From NCBI GenBank assembly GCA_039545335.1, contig BCIN01000007.1:1294530-1358529 (forward strand): a stretch of DNA of 64,000 nt, in the 5' to 3' direction. The notes under the pieces were generated by a model. It made no database searches. It saw nothing but the letters and a program-made list of their open reading frames with translations, and was not told the origin of the DNA. Shown piece after piece: positions 40,959 through 57,109 of this stretch. The position numbers were made by a program, and so were the translations under genes. Position 1 is the first letter of the stretch. Every line of letters starts with the position of its first letter. The DNA is from Kondoa subrosea. Lineage: Eukaryota.

Positions 40959-42705
40959 ATGGCAGCTACCCTTCGCCAGCGCAACGTTGAGCGTTCTGCC
41001 TCGCCTGTCTCGTTCTCTAGCGATTCAGAGACTGAAGATATTCCTAGCTTCACACCTCCATCTTTCACTGTAAGCCTTTCGTTTGTGTTGGGCCCGCGTC
41101 ATTAAGATTGATTTTCGTATTCCCCTGTACAGATCAAAGAATTGCTCGATGCTATTCCAAAACACTGCTTCGAACGAAGCGCCATCAGATCTTTTGGCTA
41201 TGTAGCCATGGATTTCGCTTTCATCGCCGCACTGGGCACGTGTGCCTATCACATTTCAACTTTCTTTGGCTCAAATGGTTCTATCCTGAGCGGCAATGCT
41301 GGCGTTGCTGCTAGTTGGGCTGCCTGGGCTGCCTACTGTAGGGTTCTTGTTTCGAGCGGGTTACATCAGCTGAAATTCTCGCTTCAGGGTGGTATCAAGG
41401 TCTTGTCATGACTGGCGTTTGGGTCATCGCACACGAATGTAAGCTCTTTGAGCCTGGTGCGGTATCTGCCTCATATCTTCTCTCAGGCGGTCATCAATCC
41501 TTCTCGACCTCCAAACAGCTCAACAATGCAGTTGGTTGGGTTCTTCACTCGGCTCTTTTGGTTCCTTACCACTCGTGGAGAATCTCTCACGCTAGACATC
41601 ATGCTGCTACCGGTCATTGCACAAGGGATGAAGTTTTTGTTCCCAAAACCGCTTCTGATCTTGGCATCACCAAGCCTGAAAACGGTTTCGACAAGCACGC
41701 AGAATCTTGGGCTTCCAGAGCTGATGATCTTCTTGAAGACTCACCTGCCTACATCTTCACCCGAGTTATTGCTCAACAGCTTCGTAAGTCCTCCTGGTGC
41801 TATAGCCAATGTTGGCTAAAGTCTTCTCGGTTGACTACAGTCGGCTTCCCAATGTACTTGATCCGCAACGCATCTGGACAGAAGCACTACCCAAAACACA
41901 CCAACCGTGAGCTCACGCATTGTACAAAATTCGCTTATACTGATTCTATTGTCACTTGGTGCAGATTTCAACCCTGAATCACACATCTTTGACGAACGTC
42001 ACTATGGCCAGATTATCTGGTCCGACTTTGGACTCGCTTTGGTCATTTCTGCCATCGTCTACGCTAGCAAGCAAACTTCATTCGCTACCGTTATGGCCTA
42101 CTATGGCATTCCTTACCTTTTGGTCAACCACTGGTTGGTACTCATCACTTTCTTGCAACACACCGATCCTATGCTCCCTCATTACCGAGCTGGTGAATGG
42201 AACTTCCAACGTGGAGGTGAGTTACGATGTATTGCTTGCATGATCCTCAGCTCATTAAGGAACGATTGTAAATCACAGCTCTTTGCACTCAAGATCGCAA
42301 CAGTAAGCATGTCTCGAGATCACGACTTTTCAAATTTAATTTCTGTCGAGCAGTTCACAACTTCTTGACCCACTCTATCGCAAACACCCATGTTTTGCAC
42401 CACTTGAAATCCTCAATTCCTCACTACCACGCCCACGATGCGACTGAAGCGCTCAAGAAAGTTTTGGGCGACCACTACTTGTTTACTGAAGAGCACTGGG
42501 CCGTATCTTTATGGAAGTGCTACTCTCAGTGCCGTGTATGTCCCGCGTCCGCTATCATTCAGAATTTCACTGATGATACCGTATTCACATACAGTTCATT
42601 GACGACGATTCAGAAGTCGTCTTCTACCGCAACGCCAAGGGAGAAGTCAAACGCAGATGGGCTGTCGAAGGCAGCGACTCTGGTGTTGAGTTGAACGACA
42701 AGTAA
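40959..42705 (+). CDS. FAD2: Delta-12 (omega-6) fatty acid desaturase, copy 1
   Basis: FT|IKELLDAIPKHCFERS; His boxes HECGH, HARHH, HVLHH; NHWLVLITFLQHTDP; IPHYHA. Confidence 0.93.
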
Positions 42706-43276
42706 ACGAACGAGATCAAGGGGTTGATGGAATTAATCAAGTGTTGAACGATTTTCTTCAAAACCACTACACACCCACACACACTTATGCTAGACGGTTT
42801 TCTTTATCTTATTTAGATTGAAATCATATGCTCAGCTACTTATTTGATATCTGCACGTTCTGCATCGCAATATGTTGACACGTATTCGGATCATTATGTG
42901 ATAGGACACGTCTTACGTAAGCTAATTTGATAGATCGGGATTGCCTATCAGTGCCAAGCTGGGCGCTTCCTTTGCGTGGGTCTAGCTACATTGCTACAGC
43001 AGATTTAGCCCAAGCGCGTCATGGACATTGAACATTAATCGTCTCACCCGGTAAGTCTCGCAAGCCAAGACCTTAGTCTCGAGCGTTTTTTGAGGCTCTC
43101 TTTCCCTTTTGCACATCGACACAGCTTTCCAACAAGCTATTACACCAGACTGCTCGCGCTACACAAGCAGTCCTCCTATTTATTCGACGACAAGATCTTC
43201 AATCGACTGACTCCACCAGACTCGACTTTTCAGAGCATATACTACTTTCCCATTCTTTACTTTCTGCCAATAAGTT

Positions 43277-44966
43277 ATGGCTTCCACACTTCGTCAGCGG
43301 AACGTTGAACGTTCTGCTTCACCTGTCTCTTTCACGAGCAGCGATTCAGAGGATGAGTCTCTAGCTACTTTCACTCCTCCATCATTCACCGTGCGTTTTC
43401 TTGAAATCGCTGATCGATCTTCATTGTAATTCTATGGGTGTTAATATACAGATCAAAGAATTGCTAGATGCTATTCCAAAACATTGTTTCGAGAAGAGTG
43501 CGCTCAGAAGTTTAAGCTACGTCGCTATGGATGCAGCTTTCATCTTCGCTTTGGGTACTTGCGCCTATAATATTTCGTCACTCTTTGGTCCTAATGGATC
43601 ATTGTTGAGCGGTCATGCTGGCATAATTGCTAAATGGGCAGCTTGGACTACATATTGTGAGTCGAATTAGACACATATTGACAAGAGAAGATCGCTAAAT
43701 ACTTGACATAGGGTGGTTTCAAGGATTGGTTATGACTGGTGTCTGGATTATCGCACATGAATGTAGGTCTAGACTTCTCCGATGTCAAGTCTGTCTGAAG
43801 AAAGTGTCAAGGCGGTCATCAATCATTCTCCAACTCAAAGAACCTCAATAACGCAGTTGGTTGGGTCCTTCACTCTATCGTCTTGGTCCCGTACCACTCT
43901 TGGCGTATCTCTCACGCAAAACACCATGCAGCAACAGGTCATTGCAACAGAGATGAAGTCTTTGTTCCTCGCACTGCATCCGATTTGGGCATTAACAAGC
44001 CTGATGGTGGATTTGAGAAGCATGCTCAGTCATGGGCCTCAAGAGCAGATGATCTACTTGAAGATTCGCCGCTGTACATTCTTGGTGCTGTTCTAGTACA
44101 GCAATTATGTACGTTGGTACTCGTTGCTCAGGCAGGTAATTATCTAAGAAGCACCACACGCAAACAGTCGGATTCCCTGCTTACCTTATCCGCAATGCCT
44201 CTGGCCAAAAATGGTACAAGAAGCAGACCAATCGTTAGTTTATTTCTCTCGGGTCAAATTTGTAGCTAACCTGGCAACACAGACTTCAACCCAAACTCTG
44301 AGATCTTCAGCGCTCGTCACTGGGGTCAAGTGCTTTGGTCTGATTTTGGTCTCGCTCTCGTCGTCGGAGCCGCAGTCTACGCCGCCAAACAAACCTCTTT
44401 CTCTACCGTCATGGCCTACTATGGTATTCCATACTTGGCAGTCAACCACTGGCTTGTGTTGATCACTTTCCTTCAACATACTGATCCTATTTTACCTCAT
44501 TACCGTGCTGGCGAATATACATGGGTCAGAGGGGCTCTTTGCACGCAGGATCGTAACAGTGAGTCCCTAATATCGTGCCTGCGAATCAATCTTGACATTT
44601 TGACTTCAAGTTTATAACTTCCTCACTCATTCAATCTCAAATACCCACGTTCTACATCACATCAACTCTTCTATCCCTCATTACCACGCTCACGAAGCTA
44701 CTGAAGCACTGAAGAAAGTTTTGGGTGATCATTACCTCTACACTGATGAACATTGGCTTGTGTCTCTATGGAAATGCTTCAACCACTGTCGTGTGAGTAT
44801 GCCGATGGAGTTTCCAGAATTAGTCTGACGATCTCCTCGTGTGCTCTCACAGTTCGTGGACAACGAAGGCGAAGTGGTCTTCTACCGCAATGCAAAAGGA
44901 GAAGCGAAACGCAAAGTCGTTTACGAAGCATCATCCGATTCTGGCATTGAAGTAGCGGACAAGTAA
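43277..44966 (+). CDS. FAD2: Delta-12 (omega-6) fatty acid desaturase, copy 2 (tandem paralog)
   Basis: IKELLDAIPKHCFEKS; His boxes HECGH, HAKHH, HVLHH; exon layout largely as in copy 1. Confidence 0.93.
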
Positions 44967-45266
44967 ATCTACGATCATGTTCGTCTACTTTCATTCTTTC
45001 TCACTACTCAAGGGGTTCTTCTTCGATTCAAGGGTTGCATTTCTTCCATCGTTCAAGCATACAAAGTAGACATAAAAAGAAACAAGGGTTGCATTAACTT
45101 AGAAAGGGGCATTATCTAGAGACTTATTTATCTATTTATTAGCATAGAGTAGCACATTGCATTGTCAAGCTCCTGCACCTTCACCCTTATTCGCCACCCT
45201 TATGCAATTCGGCTATCACATGAAAGCGGTTTTTCTCATAGCGGTGTCCTATCACCAACACAACAA

Positions 45267-46680
45267 ATGGTTCCTGCACCACCTAAACCGTGAGCCTAAC
45301 CCTGCTACTAATGGTTCATCATCTAAATCGCTTCCTCTCTAAAAGCTGGGAGACCAATAATAATACTTGTCCGGTCATGGAAGCCTCAACTTCAACTGTT
45401 GCTGCTGCTGCTCCGGAATTGCCTGCTAGACCTATTGGCATGTCTTCTATGGCTACTGGTGTGTTTTATATGCTGTTGTATGATGATGCATTGAGCTAAT
45501 CTTACTTAGAAGGAGCGTATGGCGCTTCTCCTGTTTGTCGCATCTCCTTTCCCTGGAGTGAAAAATATGCTGACCTGTTGGTATGACAGTACGGAGCAAG
45601 TCGATATGGAGCGGGAATGAGTTCATACGGAGCTGGAGCTTATGGAAACGCCTATTCTTCACCTTACTCTCGATTTGGTCAAACTTCAATGTATGGTTCT
45701 GCATTTGGAGGAGGATACGGAGGGATGGGTGGTTATGGAGGAATTGGAGCTAATCCTTATGGTCAACCTGGTTTTGGAATGCCTGGAATGGGTGGTGTCG
45801 TACCTGGACAATTTGGACCGGATGGTCTATCTTTATCGCAAAGAATGGAAAGTGGAACAGCAGCAACGTTTCAAATACTTGAATCGATAGTAGGAGCTTT
45901 TGGTGGGTTTGCTCAAATGCTGGAATCGACATTTATGGCTACCCATTCAAGTTTCTTTGCTATGATTGGAGTTGCGGAACAGTTTGGTCATCTAAGAAAT
46001 TACTTGGGTCAAGTGTTGAGCATCTTTGCGTTGATAAGATGGGTCAAGAGCTTGATTGCGAGAATAACGGGTCAAGAACTACCACCTGATCCTTCAACAA
46101 CAGCTGGAATCACAGCAGATTCTTTCAAACAATTTTCGCAGGGTGCTTCATCACCTCAAGTTCCACCCAAACCTAAACTATCAAAGAAACCTCTCTTCAT
46201 CTTCTTCCTCACCGTTGTCGGTCTACCTTACTTAATGAACAAACTTGTTCGACTTATAACAGCAAGGCAAGAAGAAGAATTACGTCAAAGAGGTGGTTTA
46301 CCTCTACAACAAGGCATGTTGGGTCCTGGTGTCGGACCAGCTGAAGTTCTGGATCCCAAGAACATCACTTTCGTAAGCGCGACTCACGCTTTCACGCCTA
46401 CGGATCCATCAGAACTACCTTTGGATGTGAACGATATCGTTGCTGTACTTTCACCACCGAGCGAGAGAGTTAGTCCAGGTTGGTGGAGAGGCAGGAAAAG
46501 GGATGGTAAAGTTGGTTGGTTCCCAACAACGTTAGTCTTTTCAATATCATGGAAGAGCGCTTGATGCTAATATTCTTGAACAGACATGTTGCTGAATTAC
46601 CTACCCAAAAGAAGACTGTCGTCGAACCGAAGATTATTGATAACGTCAAGTCTTTCCCTGTTGGTTCTGTTGGTCCGTAG
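45267..46680 (+). CDS. PEX13: Peroxin 13
   Basis: PPKP|WE start, YG-rich region, TAATFQILESIVGAFGGFAQMLESTFMATHSSFFAMIGVAEQF, GLPYLMNKL, C-terminal SH3 (WWRGRKRDGKVGWFP). Confidence 0.96.
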
Positions 46681-46795
46681 TTGTGACGAGGGATATTGTG
46701 TACATGTGGTCTGTCCAATAGTAATACATATATTGATGCTTGCTCTACATGCCCTTTGCCCCTTCCGCATTCACGTTTCGCTGACCCTAATGATT

Positions 46796-47157
46796 TCATG
46801 TTGACCTTCTTGGCACTCTCGGTTCTCTCTCAAAGAATCTTGAATGTAAGCTCATGCTAGTGACCAAATCAAAGACCGTTTCTCCAACTCCCAAATCTTT
46901 TGGATTTACTTTGACGTCAAATGTTGTCCTCTCGTAGCGCTGGGCATTGGACTCACATTGTTTCGCTATCGAATGCCCAGTCCCTTCTGGTATTCCTATA
47001 GCATCCGGCGAGATCCTGTTCAAGTGCCATTTGAGGTTCTTATTTCTGATATTTGGGTGAATGGAACAAACGCTTGACCCGAAGCGCGTTTTACTCCTGC
47101 TAATACTGTACTGATCATGATGGCATCGAAAGTGAAATGGAATAGTCTGCCGAACAT
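46796..47157 (-). CDS. DUF1748 family small fungal protein
   Basis: MFGRLFHFTFDAIMISTVLAGVKRASG|...LGVGETVFD...SRFFER pattern. Confidence 0.8.
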
Positions 47158-48151
47158 TTGGGTTGTCGCGCTTTGCGAAAAGAGTTTAGGATCTAGTAAG
47201 ACAGTTTGTTCTGGTTCAGCGATGTTTGAGATTGACTACTGGCTATGTTCCGCTGTGTCTGTTATCGGTCTTGATACAGGCTCTTTTCTTCTGCTTCTAC
47301 TGTGTTCTTGTCCGAATCCCTTCGACTTTCGACTTGGCAGAGGATGCTTCATGGCTTCACGTACTGTGAATGTTTCCTTTGTCGGCTGCTAAGCTAGTGT
47401 ACCGACCGGCGCAGCGATGACTCAGGTCGTCAGCGAGAGACACTGGAGCGCTGGCTTGCCAGTCGAATCTCGTCTCAGTCATATCCTCTAATATTCTCGC
47501 TCCTTGGATTTCTGTCCCATCTGCTATTTCTGACCATCAGACTGCCACAGTCAGAGTATCGTCAAAATATAGAGATTCTGTTGTCTGCGTACCTGGATGA
47601 TTGAGGCGGAATGAAATTACATTGCACTCGCTCGAAATCTTTCCGGTCGAGTACTTGCCTCTTCTCCTACAACAGCTAGAGGGGTTGCTCTTGTGTATGC
47701 TCTATCGATCGGCTACCTCAGATCTCCCAGTAGTTTCCCTTGTCATCTCGATTGCGCACAGAGAATCTCAGTCTCATTTTACTTAGAAGAGATCGAGACG
47801 ACGGATCTCCACCAATTTATCTCGTCGGTCTCAGTCGCGTGAATATTGCCTGGAGCTCGTCCAAGAATCGGACCTGCAATCTATGTGTACATGCATAGGC
47901 CGATGGTCACAGCTGGAGGGTTAAGTGTCGTACGACTGCTTGCTGAAGCAGGGTCGGCAGATATTTGGCCTGCTCAGCGTACATGTATAGGCGGTTGAAG
48001 TACGATTATGTCCGAACAATCCAAAGTATACCATTGTGACAAAATAAAGGGACGGGAATTCATTAGGATTCGTTGATACATTGCGCGAGCAAGACGCGTA
48101 TTATTTCTGATGCGCGATAACAACATGCAAGGTTAGTGCACATGATGAAGC

Positions 48152-48877
48152 TCATCGTTTCCGTTTGCGATTTCCCCCCTCGGTGCCTGTTCCTGCAGCT
48201 TGTGACAATCGTCTCTGCTCATCTATACGAAGGACAAGGAGATGAGCCTGGCACCACGACGACGACAACCCATCTTATGATGGTAAACAAGCATACCTTC
48301 TCTAGCACGTTCGATTCGACGCAACTCTGCAACCTGATCGTACACCTCTATTGCAATCGATCCGATGACTTGGTCGACCCACTGCACAATCGCGCTAAAA
48401 CGTCCTTCAAGCCGCAAAGCACCAATGCGTATCTCGAACAAGTCTGCCATCGCCTTCGCTCGTCGTTTCCCATGTGGAACGCTTGGAACAGTTCGATCCA
48501 GATGATAGACAGTCGCTATGTAAGAGAGAGTTTCATTGCTGGTAAGGTGTTTTCTCAGTTGCTTGAAATTTGCAGGAATCAGTTACTTTAGGAAGACAAT
48601 AAACGATGACACCGACCGTGAGCATGTCAGGTGTTGCTCTCGAGAATCTTCTGTAACATATCATCGTCACTTCACCTCTGAGGATTGCGTCGCCAACAGT
48701 TTCTATCCGGTCTGCCTCCAGCTCCTGTCCAGTTAATCGACTCGGACCATCTTTGCGCAACTTGGCACAAGCTGCAATAGCGATTAGATCAGGATTGTTG
48801 ATCTTAGGAAGCTTGTGATTTAGCGCTTCTTGCTTTCCTATAATAGTAGTGACCAGTTCTTGCGTAATTGGACCCAT
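48152..48877 (-). CDS. Stand-alone RNase III-domain protein (about 200 aa, no dsRBD), 3 exons
   Basis: Signature DRIETVGDAIL (cf. ERLEFLGDA); DMLT|QLRKHLTSNETLSYIA; ADLFEIRIGAL (cf. ADxxEAxxGA); ends GGNRKRKR*. Confidence 0.82.
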
Positions 48878-49447
48878 TCTGACAAAGATTGTAATGGCAC
48901 CGTGCTTTTGAGACTACGTGATATCCTAAGTCTAGCAGAGTGTAGTAAGGAAACGCTGCGCTGTTTGAGAAATGAGCTCTTGCGAACTTGCTGCTTAATG
49001 CCGTAATTGGACCAAGAAAGGTATGAACAGCTTCACGAGCTGGATGCTGAGCTTGAAAGTACAAAGCAGACTCGGCTGGGCCACGCAAAGTTGCAGAGAG
49101 CCAGCGCTGAACATATGTCGGAAACTTGGAAGACTTTCACGCGCTTTGCGAAATTGTCGAGCGCTTTGACCTTGTTCGGCGAAGAGATTTCATCCTGTCA
49201 TAGGTGCTTGGCTCCACATAACTGCCTCTCCGTCCGGCAACGAGTAAACAGTGCATTGCGAGTTCTCCCTTCGAATTCTCTTGCGCGCGGGGCAAGATGA
49301 TGGTCCATGACATTGCATTGTGCTCGTGTTTCTTTTGATCCGTGTACAGGATGATGCTACAGCGGCTTGACTCTCTGAAGCAGTGAAGTACTCCATGGCC
49401 GTTATGGTACATCTTTTCCAAATTTGATATTCGACCTTGAATCATTA

Positions 49448-49500
49448 CATGTCTCTGCCATGTCTCTGCTGCAAGTCTAACGGCACTGCAAGTCTACGGC
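49448..49500. repeat. Two adjacent short tandem duplications at the left edge of the retroelement fragment
   Basis: CATGTCTCTGC x2 (49448-49469), then TGCAAGTCTA(A)CGGC x2 (49470-49500). Confidence 0.8.
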
Positions 49501-49519
49501 CTCGGCTTGGTATCCCTAA

Positions 49520-51170
49520 GGAAAAGAAAAGCTCGGCAAGAGGTCCATAAAGCAAAAAAATTAGGCATTGTCATGGAGACCTGGGACAAATCGTATGAGC
49601 TGGGCGTGGTCAAGAGAGAGTTCCCTGCTCACATTGGGGATTGAACCCAAGACATCTCGCAAGTGCTTAGGCATGCGAAGCGAGCTGAGGCAGAGTTTTA
49701 ACGATTTGTTCAAAATTTCTAATGTACAACCGTACCTATCTACCACTGATCTGCATGGCTCATGAGAGGAAATCGCGGCAACGGGCTTTTAATCACTAAC
49801 ATATATCCCCATTGTTGGCGAAAAACGGCAAAATTTACGCCAGTACTCAAAAGTATATAACAATGTTTGTAAGACGCAATCGATTGGTCAATGCAGTTGC
49901 AAAACAGCCAAGAACTTCTTCCGATGATCCTGGATACTTCTGGAACTGGAGAGCTATCTTTTGCAACGCACCAGATGACAAGCGGGTCGCATGGGCAGTC
50001 GCAAGATCAAAGATGCGCAAACTCTTGTCGCCAATATGGCAAGACTACCTAGAAGCCTGGGAGCTCGCAACATACCTCCCAAAAGACCTCAACTGGAGCG
50101 AAACCTTCTTATCCAAGCAAGTAGAAAGGAAGCAACACAACGCGTGGGGTTTTCTTACAATGGTGGACTCCAGCAATTTCCAACAAATAGGCGGAGATAT
50201 CATTGCAGTAGCACAAGACGTAGTGAACCAGCGAAGGCAACATCAGCTCTTCAGGAAAACAATTCAACCGGAAGGCTGGAAGTCTCGTTTCCCAAATCTT
50301 ATCCATGAACGATGGCAGAAAGCATGGACAACAACAGCTTTACTCGATCGAATTCTACCAGAAGAGGTCGACACAGCCCATCGCATATCTCTCGGCTCTC
50401 TACAACCACAATCCCGCAAGATTGAATGGAAGAATCATCGTCCAGTTGGCAATGATTCGCAGTGTTCTTTGTGCGGAGATATGGTCAGAGAAGATTTCGC
50501 TCACATCTTCTCGCATTGCACCACCTCAAAGGAAATATGGGCACTTGCTGGCCCACNTGCTCATCTGAAGGAACCACCTGATATAACGCAGTTCGTATGT
50601 CCAGCGTACGATCCGATTACAGTAGCGTTTATGATGGTGTACCAACACCAAATCCACAAACTTGCAACTCATCAACGCTTCTCAATGATGGCATCTAAGC
50701 ATCTGACAAGAGAACAGATGTTGCGAGTCGCTAAGAAGATCTTCGATTCAGCAAAATCAGCAGAAATGAAGATTCGAGCGAAAATGGCCAAGAAAGCAGC
50801 AGCACAGAAGAAGAGGAAGAGCAACCAGAAGAAGAAGCCAGCTCCTCGTTCTACTACATCATCAAAGACTGNGGTTTTATCCAAACCAAAGTCGGATCCC
50901 AAACGCTGAGGCAGGAGTTCTAGGCCTCTGTGCAGGCGAAATGCGGCCTAAGACCACAGAGGGGCGTCGCATCTAATGCGAGGTCGGGTTGGAATCCCTC
51001 ACAACGTCTATACCCACTTTCATTCGTTTCGGCGGTGAATTTGGCGTTCCAGGAACTTCGGTGACTGGGGCTGAAGATTCTCCTGCCTTTTCTCACAATA
51101 GCACTCTACTGTGCGAGTCCTCCTAGAGGGCGCGTGCTGAATTTCGTTTGCAATGGTCGTTCTATGAATA
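49520..51170 (+). mobile_element. 5'-truncated non-LTR retrotransposon fragment (L1/Tx1-like ORF2 C-terminus with zf-RVT) plus putative 3' UTR
   Basis: Intronless W-rich ORF 49812-50909 with CSLC..E.FAHIFSHC...IW zinc knuckle; upstream frames disrupted; ambiguous N bases. Boundaries approximate. Confidence 0.75.
50909..51088 (+). ncRNA. Putative structured RNA element in retroelement 3' UTR
   Basis: 9-bp closing stem AGGCAGGAG/CTCCTGCCT; pseudoknot TAGGCC/GGCCTA + TCTGTG/CACAGA; CGCA-TCTAA-TGCG hairpin; GGG-TTGGAAT-CCC T-arm-like hairpin; two UUCG-capped hairpins. Confidence 0.55.
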
Positions 51171-52660
51171 AGCTAGCTTACAAGTTCTGTACTACCTACA
51201 AGCAAATTGTCTATCTCAGCGTTCCCTTTCTACTTCAGAGAACAAAACAGCGAGACCGAGCGCGTAACAGATTGATAGAGAGATCGAGAATTAAAGATTT
51301 GTAGACATACGGATCCATGAGATCTTGCCAATGAGCAAGAACTTCTTTTGAGGTAGGTGAAGGAGTTCCAGATGAGGTGAATATGATAGGGTGGAAAGGA
51401 TTCTTAACGAGACTGCAGTAGTGACGATTCTTCTCCGCTTCAATTCCAGACAAGTAATGTGAAATACGTTTTTCAGTTGAAGCAAAGAGGTCAGGATCTT
51501 GAGTGGTCGGAGCAGGAGGAAAGCGTTGCGAATGAACAGAAGTGAACTTGATATCATAGTCTCCAACTTCTTGACGGAACGAGCCAGGTCCAGCTATGCG
51601 AATGCGTAGATCAGTTCTATCTCTTCGACCAGGTATAGAAGGTTCAGGTTTGACTGTTGTGCCCTCTATCGTTTCGACGTGGTACTTGATCGTAATCTTT
51701 GCCTTCTCATGGCGGAAGATTCGCATATTCTGTCGTTGAGCACAGACTTCATCATGTCCAATGACGTTTGGACGGCAGCAGTACTTGCAGACGTCGTTGT
51801 GACCTCGTATGAGCGTTCGGTGTGTCAAACCAANTGCAATTTCTCTCTTCGACAGCGTTTTGTAGGAGTTGTTTGGGATGGCATGAAGCCACTGTGAAGA
51901 GATTGAGGAGTGGTTGTCGACGTATTGAACGAGTTCAGATGAGCTGAGTTGAGGTAAGAGCTTGATCCGATTCTCTTTGTGCATTTCATGACATCGCTCT
52001 CTTTGACTCTTGAATTCTGATGGTTCTGAATAATTGACATCTGGAGCAAAGTCATTGATCAAGTAATCCATCTTCTCAATCATTGCTGCTCTTCCATGTC
52101 CAGCACATTCCTTAAGAGACAAGAAGCCAAGTCCACCATAACTGATCGGAAAGGAGAGGAGTCGAGCATCATGCGGTTGAATTCGTATCTGTTCACCTCG
52201 CAATTTGGCGACAGCTCGTAAGATGTTCATGTCCATTTCAGCCCAAACTTCAAGTACTGCAGGAGTAGGTGGAAGAGTGCGAAGAAGATAACGCAGGCGG
52301 TGTTGAAGACTAAGGCGAAGGAGAAGCAGAGCATGATGGGCTTCAAGTTGATCTAGCTTGAAGAGGTGTAGAGCTTCACCGATGACTTTCTCGCGAAGAA
52401 AGCGTTCAGGATAAGGTCCAATGTAGCTACCAAGTGTTTCAATCTCAGCTTGAGGAGAAAGACCATTTTCACGAGTCTTGTGAGGTTTGAGGTTGAGAAT
52501 GATGCCTCGATGACGGTGATCCTCAAAGATAGCTTTGACTTCCTCAAGACGTGAGCGGTCTACAAAGGCTTTTGTATCATCGAGATAAGCCAAAACTTGA
52601 GCAAGATTGAACTGATTCGTTTCTCCTTCGTTGAGCCTTCGAGCAAGGTCTTCCAGGAAG
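51170..52660 (-). mobile_element. 5'-truncated CRE-clade (Cnl1/MoTeR-like) non-LTR retrotransposon with REL endonuclease
   Basis: Intronless ORF 51235-52593: AYLDD RT motif, LGSYIG, LLLLRLS..RLRYLLRT, P.S.GGLG, CCHC finger CKYC..GHDEVC, RHE, RTDL..DIK..EAEKNRHY, FHPIIFTSSG (restriction-like endonuclease). Confidence 0.88.
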
Positions 52661-52861
52661 AAAGGAAAGATTCACAGGAAGAAGAAGAAGCGTGGCTTAT
52701 GCCATCAGAAGGAAACAATGAAGATTGTCATGCTTGATAACGAAATACAACCCTCTTTTCAGTCCTTTATAGAAAGAGAAATCAACCAACGAACCAGCGT
52801 CTGTTTTCTCTTTCTTCTTCTTCCTTCTTCTCCTTTCTCTTCCCTATGTGCATAGAGAAAA

Positions 52862-53546
52862 TTAGAACTCCATCTCGCTCGACCCATTTGATCCGGTAGT
52901 TGGTGTAGTGGCATGATCCAACGAAGGAGAATTAGCAGGCGTCGCACCAATTTGATTTGCGTTCACATCCGCTTGAGTGAAAGAAGAAGGACGTAAAGCG
53001 AGTTGAGCGAAAGGGTTCAAAGTTTCTGATGGTCTGTACGGGTCAGCTTCTTCTATCAGCTCGAAAACGAGCAGATGATAGAAGAAGAGAACGTACGATG
53101 GTTCGGGAGAACCTAATTGAATAGAATCTTGCTGCTGCTGCTGCGGGGGAGGTTGATATCTCACAGGTAACCCAGAAACAACCTGTCATATCAAGCCTCA
53201 CTATTAAGCTCCTAACATGCAGCTAAGTACGAGGCGGACTGACCCTTTGACGTTTCTCAGGTGAAAGTCTTTGTTCAACTTGTTCTACTAAATCCTCATA
53301 CCCATCCCTTAACCTCTTCTTACCCAATAACCCGCAATCCCAACCACCATCATCATCCTCATCATCGTAAGCACCCAAAACAAAAGAATCATGATCATGC
53401 AACATTGAACTGCTTGAACATGAAGTTGGAGCGTAATAAATTATTCCAGCACTTGAGGAAGGGGTAGCTAAAGATGTAGAAGGTGAAGGGATAGGTTCAC
53501 CCCAGGGTGCAGAGATTTGTTGAGCATGAGATTGGTCGAAATCCAT
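52862..53546 (-). CDS. Hypothetical low-complexity protein, multi-exon
   Basis: MDFDQSHAQQ...GKKRLRD...PEKRQR|...SEMEF*, joined by plausible GT-AG introns. Confidence 0.55.
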
Positions 53547-54169
53547 TACTATTTGGTTCGAGAACAAGAGAGTTGCATGAATTTGTCCAGAAAACAACAA
53601 AGTCATGCTGAGGTGGAGACATAGCTATGTAATGCACTTATATATAATTGAGAGTACAATGATCTATTCCTTTCTTCCAGCTATACTTTGATGACCGAAA
53701 ACAAGAATGAGGGAGGGATGAAAATGAAGGGAAGGGTAGATCAAGATGTATGTTTTTTGCGGGTGCAGAATTGATGATAGGATCGCTTGATGCTGTGAAG
53801 AAGCTTGATAATGGTTCAGGCTTCAATAACATCGCAGCTGTTTTTGTTATGAAATGCTTTGACGAGCGAAAAGGTGTAGAAGCCGAATGGAAGCGAGCAG
53901 CTGAGCAGAATGGTGCCGAGCCGGACGGAGGTAGGCGAGGGAGATACAGAGGCGGAAAAGAGATTGACGAGGTAAATATCTTGCAGTTAGGCGAACGTGG
54001 AAGGGTGTAATTCTTGCAGAATCAATTTCAAGCTTCTTGGCGAAACAAAACGCAGTAGATTGTAGTAAAGGAGTTGGTCGAGACGCCAGGAGGTAGACAG
54101 GCGAGCGAACAGATGGCGAATGAAGGGCGAATTGTCGAAGTTACGAGGTGTTGTCCATACTTGCTGCGG

Positions 54170-55173
54170 TTATCGAAATTTGAGAGTAATTTTGCTGTTT
54201 TCGTTTTCAGTATCATAATCTTGAATCTTGGCAGGTATGAGGAGAGAGATGGAGGCGAGTTCTTGTCTTGATTTGGTCGGAAGTTTTGCTTGGAAGGGAA
54301 AGAGAGATAGTCGAGACGTTTTGTAGAATGGTACAGGATCGTAAAGTATAAGTTGTGATACAGAGAGTAGATAATGGAGTGGGGAATACAGGTAATGAAC
54401 GAATTGATGTAACAATGGGAGTAATGAATGTCTTGAAGTTGGATGTAGATGTTTTGGAAAGAGATCGCAAGGAGGCCAGCTCCGCCGAATCTTGAGTTTT
54501 GTTCGATTTAGAAATGACCACCTGCAGAATTAAGAAGATTGATGGTATTAGTACGTGACTAATAAGACGCATTCTTCAACCTGCCTTGAGCTTGCCAACG
54601 ACCTGTCAATTTGTTTCAGCCCTATGCTGGAGAAGCAAAGTGCGGGCAAGAACTGACCATAATAGCAACCCATAGCAGTTAAATCATCTTCAGAAGGTGT
54701 CGATTGATTTGCCGGAGGATAGATGACCGCAGGATAATTGATTTGCTCCTGCTTCTTTTGCTGTTGAGATGGTTGAGGTGTGGCATCGTGATCCATGTCG
54801 TGATCCATGTCGACGTCGTCTTTTGGTGTAGATGGGAACTGCCGAAGAATTGTAAGATGTGAAATAACAAGGCAAGAGAGTGAAACATACGGAATCGTTT
54901 GTGGAAACTGGTGAATTGCTTTGCTCAGCTTGATAATTGTAAGGTGGGATTTGTATCGAATGAGGGCTACTCCAATCGTCAGTCACTTGCCCTCAGAATC
55001 CCGGGAATCGCGGTTCGAAACTCACAAAGTAGCTGATTGACCTGTATGCTCGCACTATTTATCAGCTCTCTAGTAATGTCTCTATATGATGATGAGGACT
55101 AACGAGTAGGAGGTCGAACGACGCAGCAGGAATCTTGGTCTGAATCTTCCAGGTCTGAATCTGAAATAGCCAT
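54170..55173 (-). CDS. Hypothetical protein, multi-exon
   Basis: Chain of short exons from MAISDSDLEDSDQDSCCVV through DMDHDMDH..QINYPAVIYPP..LCFSSIGL to LYDPVPFYK. Both ends uncertain. Confidence 0.45.
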
Positions 55174-55557
55174 TTCCACTTCACCAGAATTGATGGGTGC
55201 ATGTTGACCAGTGTAGTCATTGGCTTCAAAGAAACTAGCAACCTGTGGAGATCAGAAGTTTTTTAGAATCACGTCCAAGTTTGGCAACTTCATGTCACGA
55301 GAAAAAACTACTGACTCTGCATTTCTTAGAGCTCGATTCGCGTCCTTCAGAGTGTTCGTCGAATGTGCGCTTCATGTGTGTGTAGGTAGGAATAGAGGAA
55401 TATGAGGAAAGATGTTGTTCAAGAGCAACAAGCATTTTTTGAAAAATCGGAAATCTGTTTATGCGCGAACGGGAAATCCGGGGATGACAAGGGAAGGCAC
55501 CTTCTTAGACCGTGTTATTCCTCTCACGCGCATGACATTGACTACTGCATGAGCTAT

Positions 55558-56893
55558 CTAACCAGGTGGTAACATTGTAGAATCCATAACTTCCACTTCC
55601 GCTTCCACATCATCTTCTTCATTCCCATCAGCAATTGAACTCCATCCTCTAGGCATGACCATTACACCTGAGACGAATGACATCTCAGTAACAAAACCCA
55701 AACGCGTAATAGAGGCCCGACTCACCAGTTCTAGCAGCTTCCAAAATTCCATAAGGTCTAACCAATCTCAAGAAACTGTCAATCTTTGCAGTCTTGCCAG
55801 TCAATTCCACCACAACGCAATCGTTGGACACATCACTGATTTTCCCATGAAATTGTCTAGCTAAAGTTTCAATGCTTGCTAAATGTAAATGTTTTTGTCT
55901 TAATGCTTGAGAAGCGGTAATATGACCACTTGTGGAAGAATGAGAAGTTGAAGAACCTTCCCATAAACCAGTTGAATCTTCATTGGATGAAGAAGAAGAT
56001 AGGTTGGCGTAAGGGTTAGATTGAGCTGCTGCATTAGCTGCTCTTTCAGCTAATCGAATCGCTGGTGAACTCGAATCCAGTCCTTCTGATTCCCCGCCTT
56101 CTTCTTCTTTTCCTTCTTCTATCGCTTCACGTTGTTGTTGCTGCGAAGAAGATTGAGGTAAAGGTTGATTCCATCTTCTAGCTAACTGATCTTCGAAATA
56201 ATCGGGACCCAGAATAGATATTTTCACCAATAACAATTCTCTTTGAACGGATTTGGTTTGAGTGAAGTTGAGAACAGCCCAAACAGGTACTAAATCTTCC
56301 AATTGTCGACGAGCTTGTTCGATGACTGTATCTTGACCTCGTAGAACAATTGACATTCTACTCAAATCTTTCACTTCCGTTGCGCATACTACTAAACTCT
56401 CAATACTATCATGCACATAACAGCATCAGCTTTTTCTTGTCCCTTGTATTAAGCGTAGAGAAAAGGAGAACTAACTTGAAACCTCTTGCAGCTAAACAAC
56501 CCGATACTCTACTAAGTACACCAGGTTCGTTCTGTACCAAGCAATTCAAAGTATGTTTCACAAAAGGTTGACTAGAAGGAGGTGGTGTGTTGTACAAAAT
56601 ATTGGAAACTGCTTCTTGAGCTGACCATTTAGGTGGATCAATTGTTGGTAAGGGAGGCGGTCTTCGATGAGGATGAGCAAGTTTATAATCTAAAGCTGAA
56701 GCTGCATCGTCGAAATGTCGTTCAGCTCGTTTCTGTTCACAGATCCAATGCATGAGTCAGAATGATAACAATTTCCAGAAGCGAGAGAGAGAGAACGCAC
56801 TGGATCTTTTGGTGCTGCTGTACAAGAGGAAGTACTGAAATTGGCTGATTTAGGTAGATGCCGGAGCACTCTGACAGCTTTGTTGGAAACCAT
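55558..56893 (-). CDS. ILV6: Acetolactate synthase small (regulatory) subunit
   Basis: SALDYK, EAVSNILYNTP, HTLNCLVQNEPGVLSRVSGCLAARGF, LSRMSIVLRGQD.VIEQARRQLEDLVPVWAV, RPYGILEAARTG, ends LPPG*. Confidence 0.97.
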
Positions 56894-57109
56894 AACCAAA
56901 AGAAATGGTTTGAATCTAACAATTTTTTTATAGGCTGGGCTTTGTCGGAGTCGCGTCAAGAAACAATGAAGCCCCGGACTTGATTGAATCACGGAAGTGG
57001 GAGAAAGCTTTGCAATACAATAATCTTGTATGAACAGACAGTACAACAGAATGAAACCCAAGAAATAAATCAAGCAAGAAAACTTTCAGTACACCTTCAT
57101 CACATTACT

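Follow-up and report, generated by a model that had tools for sequence, protein, structure and literature searches.

Known RNase III enzymes differ in how they manage with or without a dsRBD. Rnt1 recognises a tetraloop through its dsRBD (PMC3867540), and Mini-III works without one, maturing rRNA by means of its alpha5b-alpha6 loop and the protein L3 (PMC5141509, PMC3867540). E. coli RNase III deprived of its dsRBD gives 2 +/- 2% cleavage compared with 69% (PMC10037077), and EhRNaseIII, which is also dsRBD-less, cleaves poorly in vitro (PMC4521922). Within the E. coli enzyme, E41, D45 and E117 tolerate no change, and E65P is neutral, the one such substitution (PMC10037077). Engineered E. coli RNase III heterodimers nick one strand, as the KREN/KREPB pairs of the editosome are proposed to do (PMC3867540). 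The Mucor enzyme R3B2 cuts ssRNA only; RBM4 is absent from it, its catalytic residues are atypical, and it carries one or two dsRBDs (PMC8136814).

Basidiomycete RNase IIIs outside the Dicer group have hardly been studied, and Rde3 of Cryptococcus neoformans is the only characterised one that we found. Rde3 (CNAG_06643), an Rnt1-related RNase III that is not a Dicer, is required for siRNA production and transposon suppression (PMC6643885) and is conserved in Cryptococcus and Kwoniella (PMC11185503). It co-purifies with Rrp6 and Rnh1, and the pull-downs are largely without rRNA-processing proteins (PMC6643885; PMC7763443). A nuclear C. neoformans RNase III, Q5KEY8, appears in a tree of proteins with a RIIID and a dsRBD (PMC8136814), a listing that hints at a dsRBD in Rde3. 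A survey of fungal Dicers contains neither 'Rnt1' nor 'single RNase III' (PMC12663654), and no description of a dsRBD-less basidiomycete family was found in a literature search whose scope stopped short of subscription journals, figures and bioRxiv supplements. Catalytic-domain-only RNase IIIs are already known (Mini-III, EhRNaseIII); we found none described from fungi that is nuclear and has its residues intact. The gene described here, from Kondoa subrosea, belongs to an unstudied and apparently widespread basidiomycete family, so that its architecture is unstudied and not unique.

Gene model and extent

The window is the whole stretch of 64,000 nucleotides that was analysed (C7:1294530-1358529, from an 18.9-Mb genome in 27 contigs). 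On its minus strand lies an RNase III gene with its ATG at 48877 and its stop codon at 48154-48152. A preliminary description had proposed a three-exon gene of about 200 aa ending in RKRKR, and this model held up: the product has 198 aa, and the layout is backed by a paralogue and by a spliced relative, P0024. The features of the locus, in positions of the window, are as follows.

48617..48877, minus strand: exon 1, 87 codons, with a conserved N-terminal helix, the start of the RNase III domain, the signature motif and the dimer helix; 49% to the paralogue
48689..48712, minus strand: signature motif DRIETVGD, residues 56-63, with D56 in the E38 column, E59 in the E41 column and D63 in the D45 column
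48562..48616, minus strand: intron 1, 55 nt, phase 0, with a GT donor and an uncommon AAG acceptor
48297..48561, minus strand: exon 2, with N96, the basic alpha5-alpha6 (RBM4) loop, K123, D127, E130 and a long last helix
48454..48477, minus strand: basic loop PHGKRRAK, a conserved element and candidate RNA contact
48433..48456, minus strand: second catalytic motif KAMADLFE, with K123, D127 (D114 column) and E130 (E117 column); ADLFE is residues 126-130
48223..48296, minus strand: intron 2, 74 nt, phase 1, with a GTATGC donor, a TAG acceptor and, some 20 nt ahead of the latter, a branch-like GCTCAT
48152..48222, minus strand: exon 3, 23 codons, with RKRKR-stop at 48169-48152, a likely nuclear localisation signal
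46800..47157 (approximate ends), minus strand: mitofissin gene (PF08520, E 5.7e-11), starting near 47157 and bounding the downstream extent of the RNase III gene
49874..52658, both strands: multi-copy retroelement block, with a zf-RVT-bearing LINE-like 3' piece on the plus strand and a second element on the minus strand, RLE/CRE-like by eye only

Both ends of intron 1 are fixed by homology, and its length is not divisible by three. Its position is common to the paralogue and to L021, a 4-kb genomic contig, and an insertion is retained there in P0001, P0003, P0004, P0019 and P0021; P0007 and P0021 are two models of one gene, the former without the insertion and the latter with it. Because several gene calls retain an insertion exactly at this point, intron 1 predates the split from those fungi. 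In the paralogue and L021, too, the region of intron 2 holds an intron of phase 1. Other acceptors, at 48248 and 48107, could alter the last exon. A 49-nt intron 2 ending at 48248 was considered less likely; its product would be without the basic tail, and it has no branch motif.

Further splice-like signals flank the coding region. Just past the stop codon, on the minus strand at 48139-48107, a perfect branch motif GCACTAAC is followed by a CAG acceptor, and these could belong to a 3' UTR intron or to an alternative last exon that drops the basic tail. A pyrimidine run and CAG abutting the start codon (48887-48879, minus strand) resemble a 3' splice site and may mark a 5' UTR intron.

P0024, a metagenomic relative of 220 aa, comes from a 949-nt JGI contig that maps at 98-100% to L021, where the gene has three exons and two 50-nt GT-AG introns. 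Both introns are absent from the 949-nt contig, which we infer to be transcript-like. The window gene, the paralogue and the L021 gene are thus three 3-exon genes of the same layout, the last with a spliced form on record. P0024 ends in KRTRLD and has no dsRBD. A basic tail is kept in all three complete gene models, as RKRKR in the window protein, KRRKKRK in the paralogue and KRTR in L021. From its sequence and its relatives, the locus is predicted to be a host chromosomal gene with the three-exon structure given above.

The lack of a dsRBD, PAZ domain or helicase, also part of the preliminary description, was borne out. None of these families was matched in Pfam searches of the 10 downstream minus-strand frames, and mitofissin follows closely. 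Exon 3 stops after 23 codons with the next gene within 1 kb, which leaves no C-terminal dsRBD; the spliced relative is likewise without one. A genome-wide dsrm search gave three weak matches below threshold, none near the gene: one next to mL44, one within the C1 Dicer and one elsewhere; this search missed the dsRBD of the C5 Dicer and is therefore not fully sensitive. The blank result of a home-made dsRBD profile was discarded, its own positive control (the C5 Dicer) being unmatched. A profile cannot wholly exclude a very diverged dsRBD, yet there is little room for one. On the N-terminal side about 20 residues precede the domain, and the N-terminal dimer domain of Rnt1 (PF18497) was not found in exon 1, P0001 or P0024; it is present in P0012 and P0013.

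Catalytic domain and predicted fold

Searched as single exons against Pfam, exon 1 has no match and exon 2 matches PF00636 at 16 bits (cut-off 27). The spliced product matches its relatives clearly (phmmer, Z=1e6), with E 1e-21 against P0024 and 7e-11 against a yeast Rnt1-like protein, and P0024 itself passes the PF00636 cut-off at 34.9 bits; the assignment to RNase III is thus upheld, with the exon 2 match below the cut-off. When the protein is aligned to bacterial and yeast Rnt1-like enzymes, its residues E59, D63, D127 and E130 occupy the E41, D45, D114 and E117 columns, confirming the four intact metal-binding acidic positions that had been read from the sequence, and N96 and K123 stand in the eukaryotic Asn and Lys columns in addition. 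All six catalytic side chains are present in three of the four full clade members. The signature motif has diverged in the window protein, with Asp in the E38 column and TV in place of FL, and its E65 column (RBM3) holds Pro. The protein looks catalytically competent, since the equivalents of E41, D45 and E117 are kept and Pro in the E65 column is neutral in E. coli. Activity is not to be assumed, because the dsRBD-less E. coli enzyme and EhRNaseIII cleave poorly.

The loop pattern P-x-G-x-R-R-x-K is kept in all four full clade members aligned. Relative to the counterpart loop of dsRBD-bearing proteins in the family, the gain in basic character is only modest.

These observations bear on the proposal that the protein has an RNase III fold and binds dsRNA or cuts single strands without ordinary dsRNA cleavage, as R3B2 does. 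The crippling effect of dsRBD loss on the E. coli enzyme, the diverged signature and the precedent of Mucor R3B2, which cuts ssRNA only (PMC8136814), would favour it. It is made quite improbable by the retention of the six catalytic side chains in three of four full clade members and by the presence of RBM4, which R3B2 lacks.

Models of two relatives gave all-helical RNase III folds (pLDDT 86.6 and 87.9). The P0024 model matches 7dey at Z 16.2 (rmsd 2.0, 133 residues aligned) and Rnt1, 5t16, at Z 16.0 (rmsd 5.8, 163 aligned), so that Pichia Dcr1 and Rnt1 stand first in the fold ranking; bacterial matches reach at most Z 14.0 and mitoribosomal ones at most 12.6. At the site of alpha5b in Mini-III the model has a four-residue turn and a loop, with no alpha5b helix, and Mini-III is absent from the 50 best fold matches.

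The homodimer suggested in the preliminary description is plausible. For P0024 one is predicted through residues 54-90, with a score of 0.81 against 0.00 for the best control, contacts agreeing in at least 94% and pLDDT of at least 89. In comparison sets, 21 of 30 solved microbial pairs and 17 of 29 eukaryotic ones come up to this mark; no single chain out of 23 does, and among seven pairs without an older solved relative only one does. The P0024 prediction may owe its pass to solved RNase III dimers that the model already knew.

Relatives and phylogenetic position

A HMMER search over 1.84 billion representatives returned 20 matches at E up to 0.001. These comprise a close clade (P0001, P0002, P0008 and P0015, all small or partial), single-domain proteins of Sporidiobolales, agaricomycete-type proteins such as Postia P0017, and two yeast Rnt1-like proteins. 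P0016, an RBR ligase also among the 20, was taken as a false match. The closest named relatives of the window protein are from Sporidiobolales, and its best sequence matches in the PDB are 7dey, 4oog and 5t16. An RNase III cluster in the ESM Atlas (185 aa, 190 members, commonest phylum Basidiomycota) scores 0.91-0.92 to both queries; as a lead, and not an alignment, it hints that dsRBD-less forms are common. Word-index homologue searches recovered none of 606 candidates with the paralogue ORF, none of 594 with P0020 against longer proteins, and four matches among 7999 with alignment A2; Rde3 was not reached by any of these searches.

Some features of the Sporidiobolales-type proteins are recorded for their own sake. 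Among P0003, P0005, P0006, P0007, P0009 and P0029 the catalytic Lys is absent in five of six, and P0009 is also without the E117 equivalent. Several have a Cys-containing tail that is dsRBD-like by eye only (hhalign E 0.11), and Rhodosporidiobolus nylandii has at least two genes of this type.

The tree (21 rows, none of them a Mini-III, and 151 columns, with P0016 and short fragments excluded) is thinly sampled. It places the clade with the single-domain enzymes of basidiomycetes and yeasts and sets it apart from the Dicers and from the bacterial row (96.7/91); support within the Rnt1-class part is weak (41-85 bootstrap). In AU tests, a grouping with Dicer RIIIa (p 0.028), with Dicer RIIIb (0.032) or with the bacterial row (0.0002) is rejected, and one with Sporidiobolales (0.54) or the Rnt1-like rows (0.11) is not. 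An origin from Dicer RIIIa, suggested by the ETLGD-like signature, was rejected on this basis (p about 0.03). Grouping with mL57 is borderline (AU p 0.052, and 0.037 in a quicker run), and the tree alone leaves sisterhood with mL57 possible.

The genome inventory adds to this picture. Reverse searches with P0021 (two matches), P0012 (one, weak) and P0020 (two) reached no gene besides the window gene and its twin, so that these two are the only Rnt1-class genes found in the genome and, judged by residues, the window gene is the sole catalytically intact one. Separate loci encode two-domain Dicers, on C1 and C5, and there are four RdRP loci and two Piwi-domain loci. The mL57 gene (C9:70390, PF14622 above cut-off) and an mL44-like gene (C2:835206, PF22935 below cut-off, with a dsrm match beside it) are also separate, and both are degenerate. 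With respect to the C1 Dicer (L013, C1:3275000-3284900), no helicase-like frame of at least 100 aa lies upstream of the core in that stretch, and the second RNase III signature has either diverged or been interrupted by an intron.

The distinctions drawn in the preliminary description can be read against these results. The gene is not a Dicer: it has one domain only, the Dicers are separate loci, and grouping with their domains is rejected at p about 0.03. Nor is it mitoribosomal mL57 or mL44, which are the separate degenerate genes just described, with the tree only borderline against mL57. The contrast with Rnt1 and Pac1 was sound for architecture, which differs, and overstated otherwise, as the best domain matches are to the Rnt1 class and dsRBD-less relatives occur in other basidiomycetes.

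Being the sole catalytically intact Rnt1-class gene found raises the main rival explanation, that the protein is the housekeeping equivalent of Rnt1/Pac1 and processes precursors of rRNA, snRNA and snoRNA, with a partner in place of the dsRBD, the part that L3 plays for Mini-III. That job is done by Rnt1 and Pac1, and Mini-III needs no dsRBD to mature rRNA (PMC3867540). However, Rnt1 reads its tetraloop with the dsRBD that is missing here, divergence in the family is rapid (the nearest complete relative is 34% identical), and Rde3 pull-downs are largely without rRNA-processing proteins. A housekeeping role is possible on this evidence, and doubtful.

A paralogue with lysine in the E41 column

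The paralogue lies at C3:228550-229297 (L002:1171-1918). It has three exons, with intron 1 at the same codon and a phase-1 second intron, and ends in KRRKKRKWQ. The twins are 51% identical in amino acids over 196 codons, with a third-position identity of 0.31, which is saturated, and pS of 0.81 against pN of 0.36. Because amino acids are 51% identical while third positions are at 0.31, the duplication is old, with both copies constrained by purifying selection. The paralogue has Lys in the essential E41 column; by this residue it is probably catalytically inactive, and probably a binder that does not cut. About 6 kb from it is one of the four RdRP loci (C3:234986-237028), with a MutS-family gene between.

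The two proteins could form a dsRBD-free nuclear pair with one active and one dead subunit. Its single working site would nick one strand, or the dead twin would act as a brake that tunes the enzyme, and the pair would hand its substrates to RdRP as a nuclear counterpart, in genome defence, of the trypanosome editosome design. Purifying selection on both copies since the old duplication and the basic tails of both are consistent with such a pair, as are the intolerance of E. coli E41 to substitution (PMC10037077), the capacity of RNase III heterodimers for nicking dsRNA, which is also proposed for KREN/KREPB (PMC3867540), and the nearby RdRP locus. Identity at the predicted interface is 17/26 compared with 93/173 overall, an excess in the direction of pairing that is too small to count. 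No matching pair occurs in any other relative fetched, and the MutS-family gene separates the twin from RdRP in a setting where fungal neighbours are often unrelated; we regard the pair as improbable.

Genomic neighbourhood

The retroelement block lies 997 nt from the ATG of the RNase III gene, and the preliminary description had implied a tie between the two. Searching the genome with the DNA of 46800-55600 gave 18 other matches, all inside 49874-52658 and several 96-100% identical, and none covers the gene. Neither the 18 kb surrounding the twin nor the 4-kb L021 contig contains a match to the element. A link to the retroelement is not supported, because the gene is single-copy and absent from the element's other copies, and neither of these two relatives has the element nearby. 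We take the adjacency to reflect the recent insertion of the element next to a gene already in place, which would make the element a chance neighbour.

The same results bear on whether the gene is retroelement cargo, or a gene of viral origin that suppresses RNAi. Its distance of 997 nt from the element and the common fold of viral RNase IIIs would speak for this. Against it are the failure of all 18 other genomic matches to cover the gene, the spliceosomal introns, at a position that is shared and old, and the lack of an element match near the twin (18 kb) or in L021 (4 kb). In addition, 44 candidate stretches of viral contigs contained no RNase III relative, and the viral fold matches, at 14-20% identity, are weaker than Rnt1. 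This explanation is largely refuted, and we give it hardly any credence.

The block itself consists of two different non-LTR retroelement pieces lying tail to tail. Its copies elsewhere are 96-100% identical, which points to recent activity, and some are at contig ends (C5:1517, C9:1-1458). The other genes of the window are fungal with short introns, and include Pex13, fatty acid desaturases, a mitochondrial polymerase and separase. The mitofissin gene is tail to tail with Pex13, and at 41342-45000 stand two fatty acid desaturase genes, arranged in tandem and very similar in sequence. On the plus strand at 48880-49297, in head-to-head orientation to the RNase III gene, is a single-copy, protein-like frame of about 140 codons, helical-looking, with one internal stop and no convincing Pfam family. 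Rfam on 44000-57000 and ARAGORN on the whole window gave no matches, the gene is surrounded by no meaningful repeats, and none of the seven frames neighbouring the L021 gene has a Pfam family.

Possible role in the cell

We favour the explanation that the gene encodes a nuclear, Rnt1-class RNase III reduced to its catalytic domain, with an Rde3-like role in surveillance or siRNA production; taken as a whole, this stands at about even. Its structural part is highly probable, and for the Rde3-like role in RNA surveillance or siRNA supply, which is argued by analogy, the chances appear evenly balanced.

According to this explanation, the basic tail would carry the protein to the nucleus, where two copies would pair through the long signature helix and their two metal sites would cut a duplex or hairpin on both strands. 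Without a dsRBD the protein alone would hold RNA weakly, and the basic alpha5-alpha6 loop, a partner protein or both would assist it, in the manner of Mini-III. Its job would be nuclear RNA surveillance feeding an endo-siRNA pathway, as for Rde3, and not tetraloop-guided housekeeping of the Rnt1 kind. The old duplication would have left the twin, with Lys at the E41 position, as a probable non-cutting binder.

A natural protein of 198 aa with intact residues and no dsRBD makes the simplest case for testing how RNA is found by a eukaryotic RNase III that lacks this domain; a built-in control is provided by the active/E41K pair. If the basic loop were to give sequence-preferring cleavage, the protein might serve as a small RNA tool like Mini-III. 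The window gene is no pointer to a new retroelement system.

Comparison with known RNase III enzymes

Rde3 is likened to the window gene by analogy. The closest solved enzymes are Rnt1 and budding-yeast Dcr1 (5t16, 4oog, 7dey, 3rv0), which give the best sequence and fold matches and have the same four acids, Asn and Lys, and the same predicted dimer helix. The window protein differs from them in having one short helix in place of the N-terminal dimer domain, no dsRBD, and Pro for Glu in RBM3; its 198 aa compare with 522-590 aa in the yeast proteins P0012 and P0013. With R3B2 the differences are that the window protein has the RBM4 loop, canonical residues and no dsRBD. Mini-III and Entamoeba EhRNaseIII resemble it in consisting of a catalytic domain only, and they are homodimers, as is predicted for its relative P0024; Mini-III is probably of separate origin, and the resemblance would be one of design only.

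The single-domain RNase IIIs of other basidiomycetes, of 276-369 aa in Rhodotorula and Rhodosporidiobolus and 219-227 aa in Postia placenta, share with the window protein reciprocal matches in the genome, the position of intron 1 and the lack of the RBM3 Glu. The Postia protein also has the N-terminal helix in common with it and no dsRBD match. In contrast, the Sporidiobolales proteins have a C-terminal extension that is dsRBD-like by eye and are mostly without the catalytic Lys, whereas the clade of the window protein is marked by its ET-x-GD signature and short basic loop.
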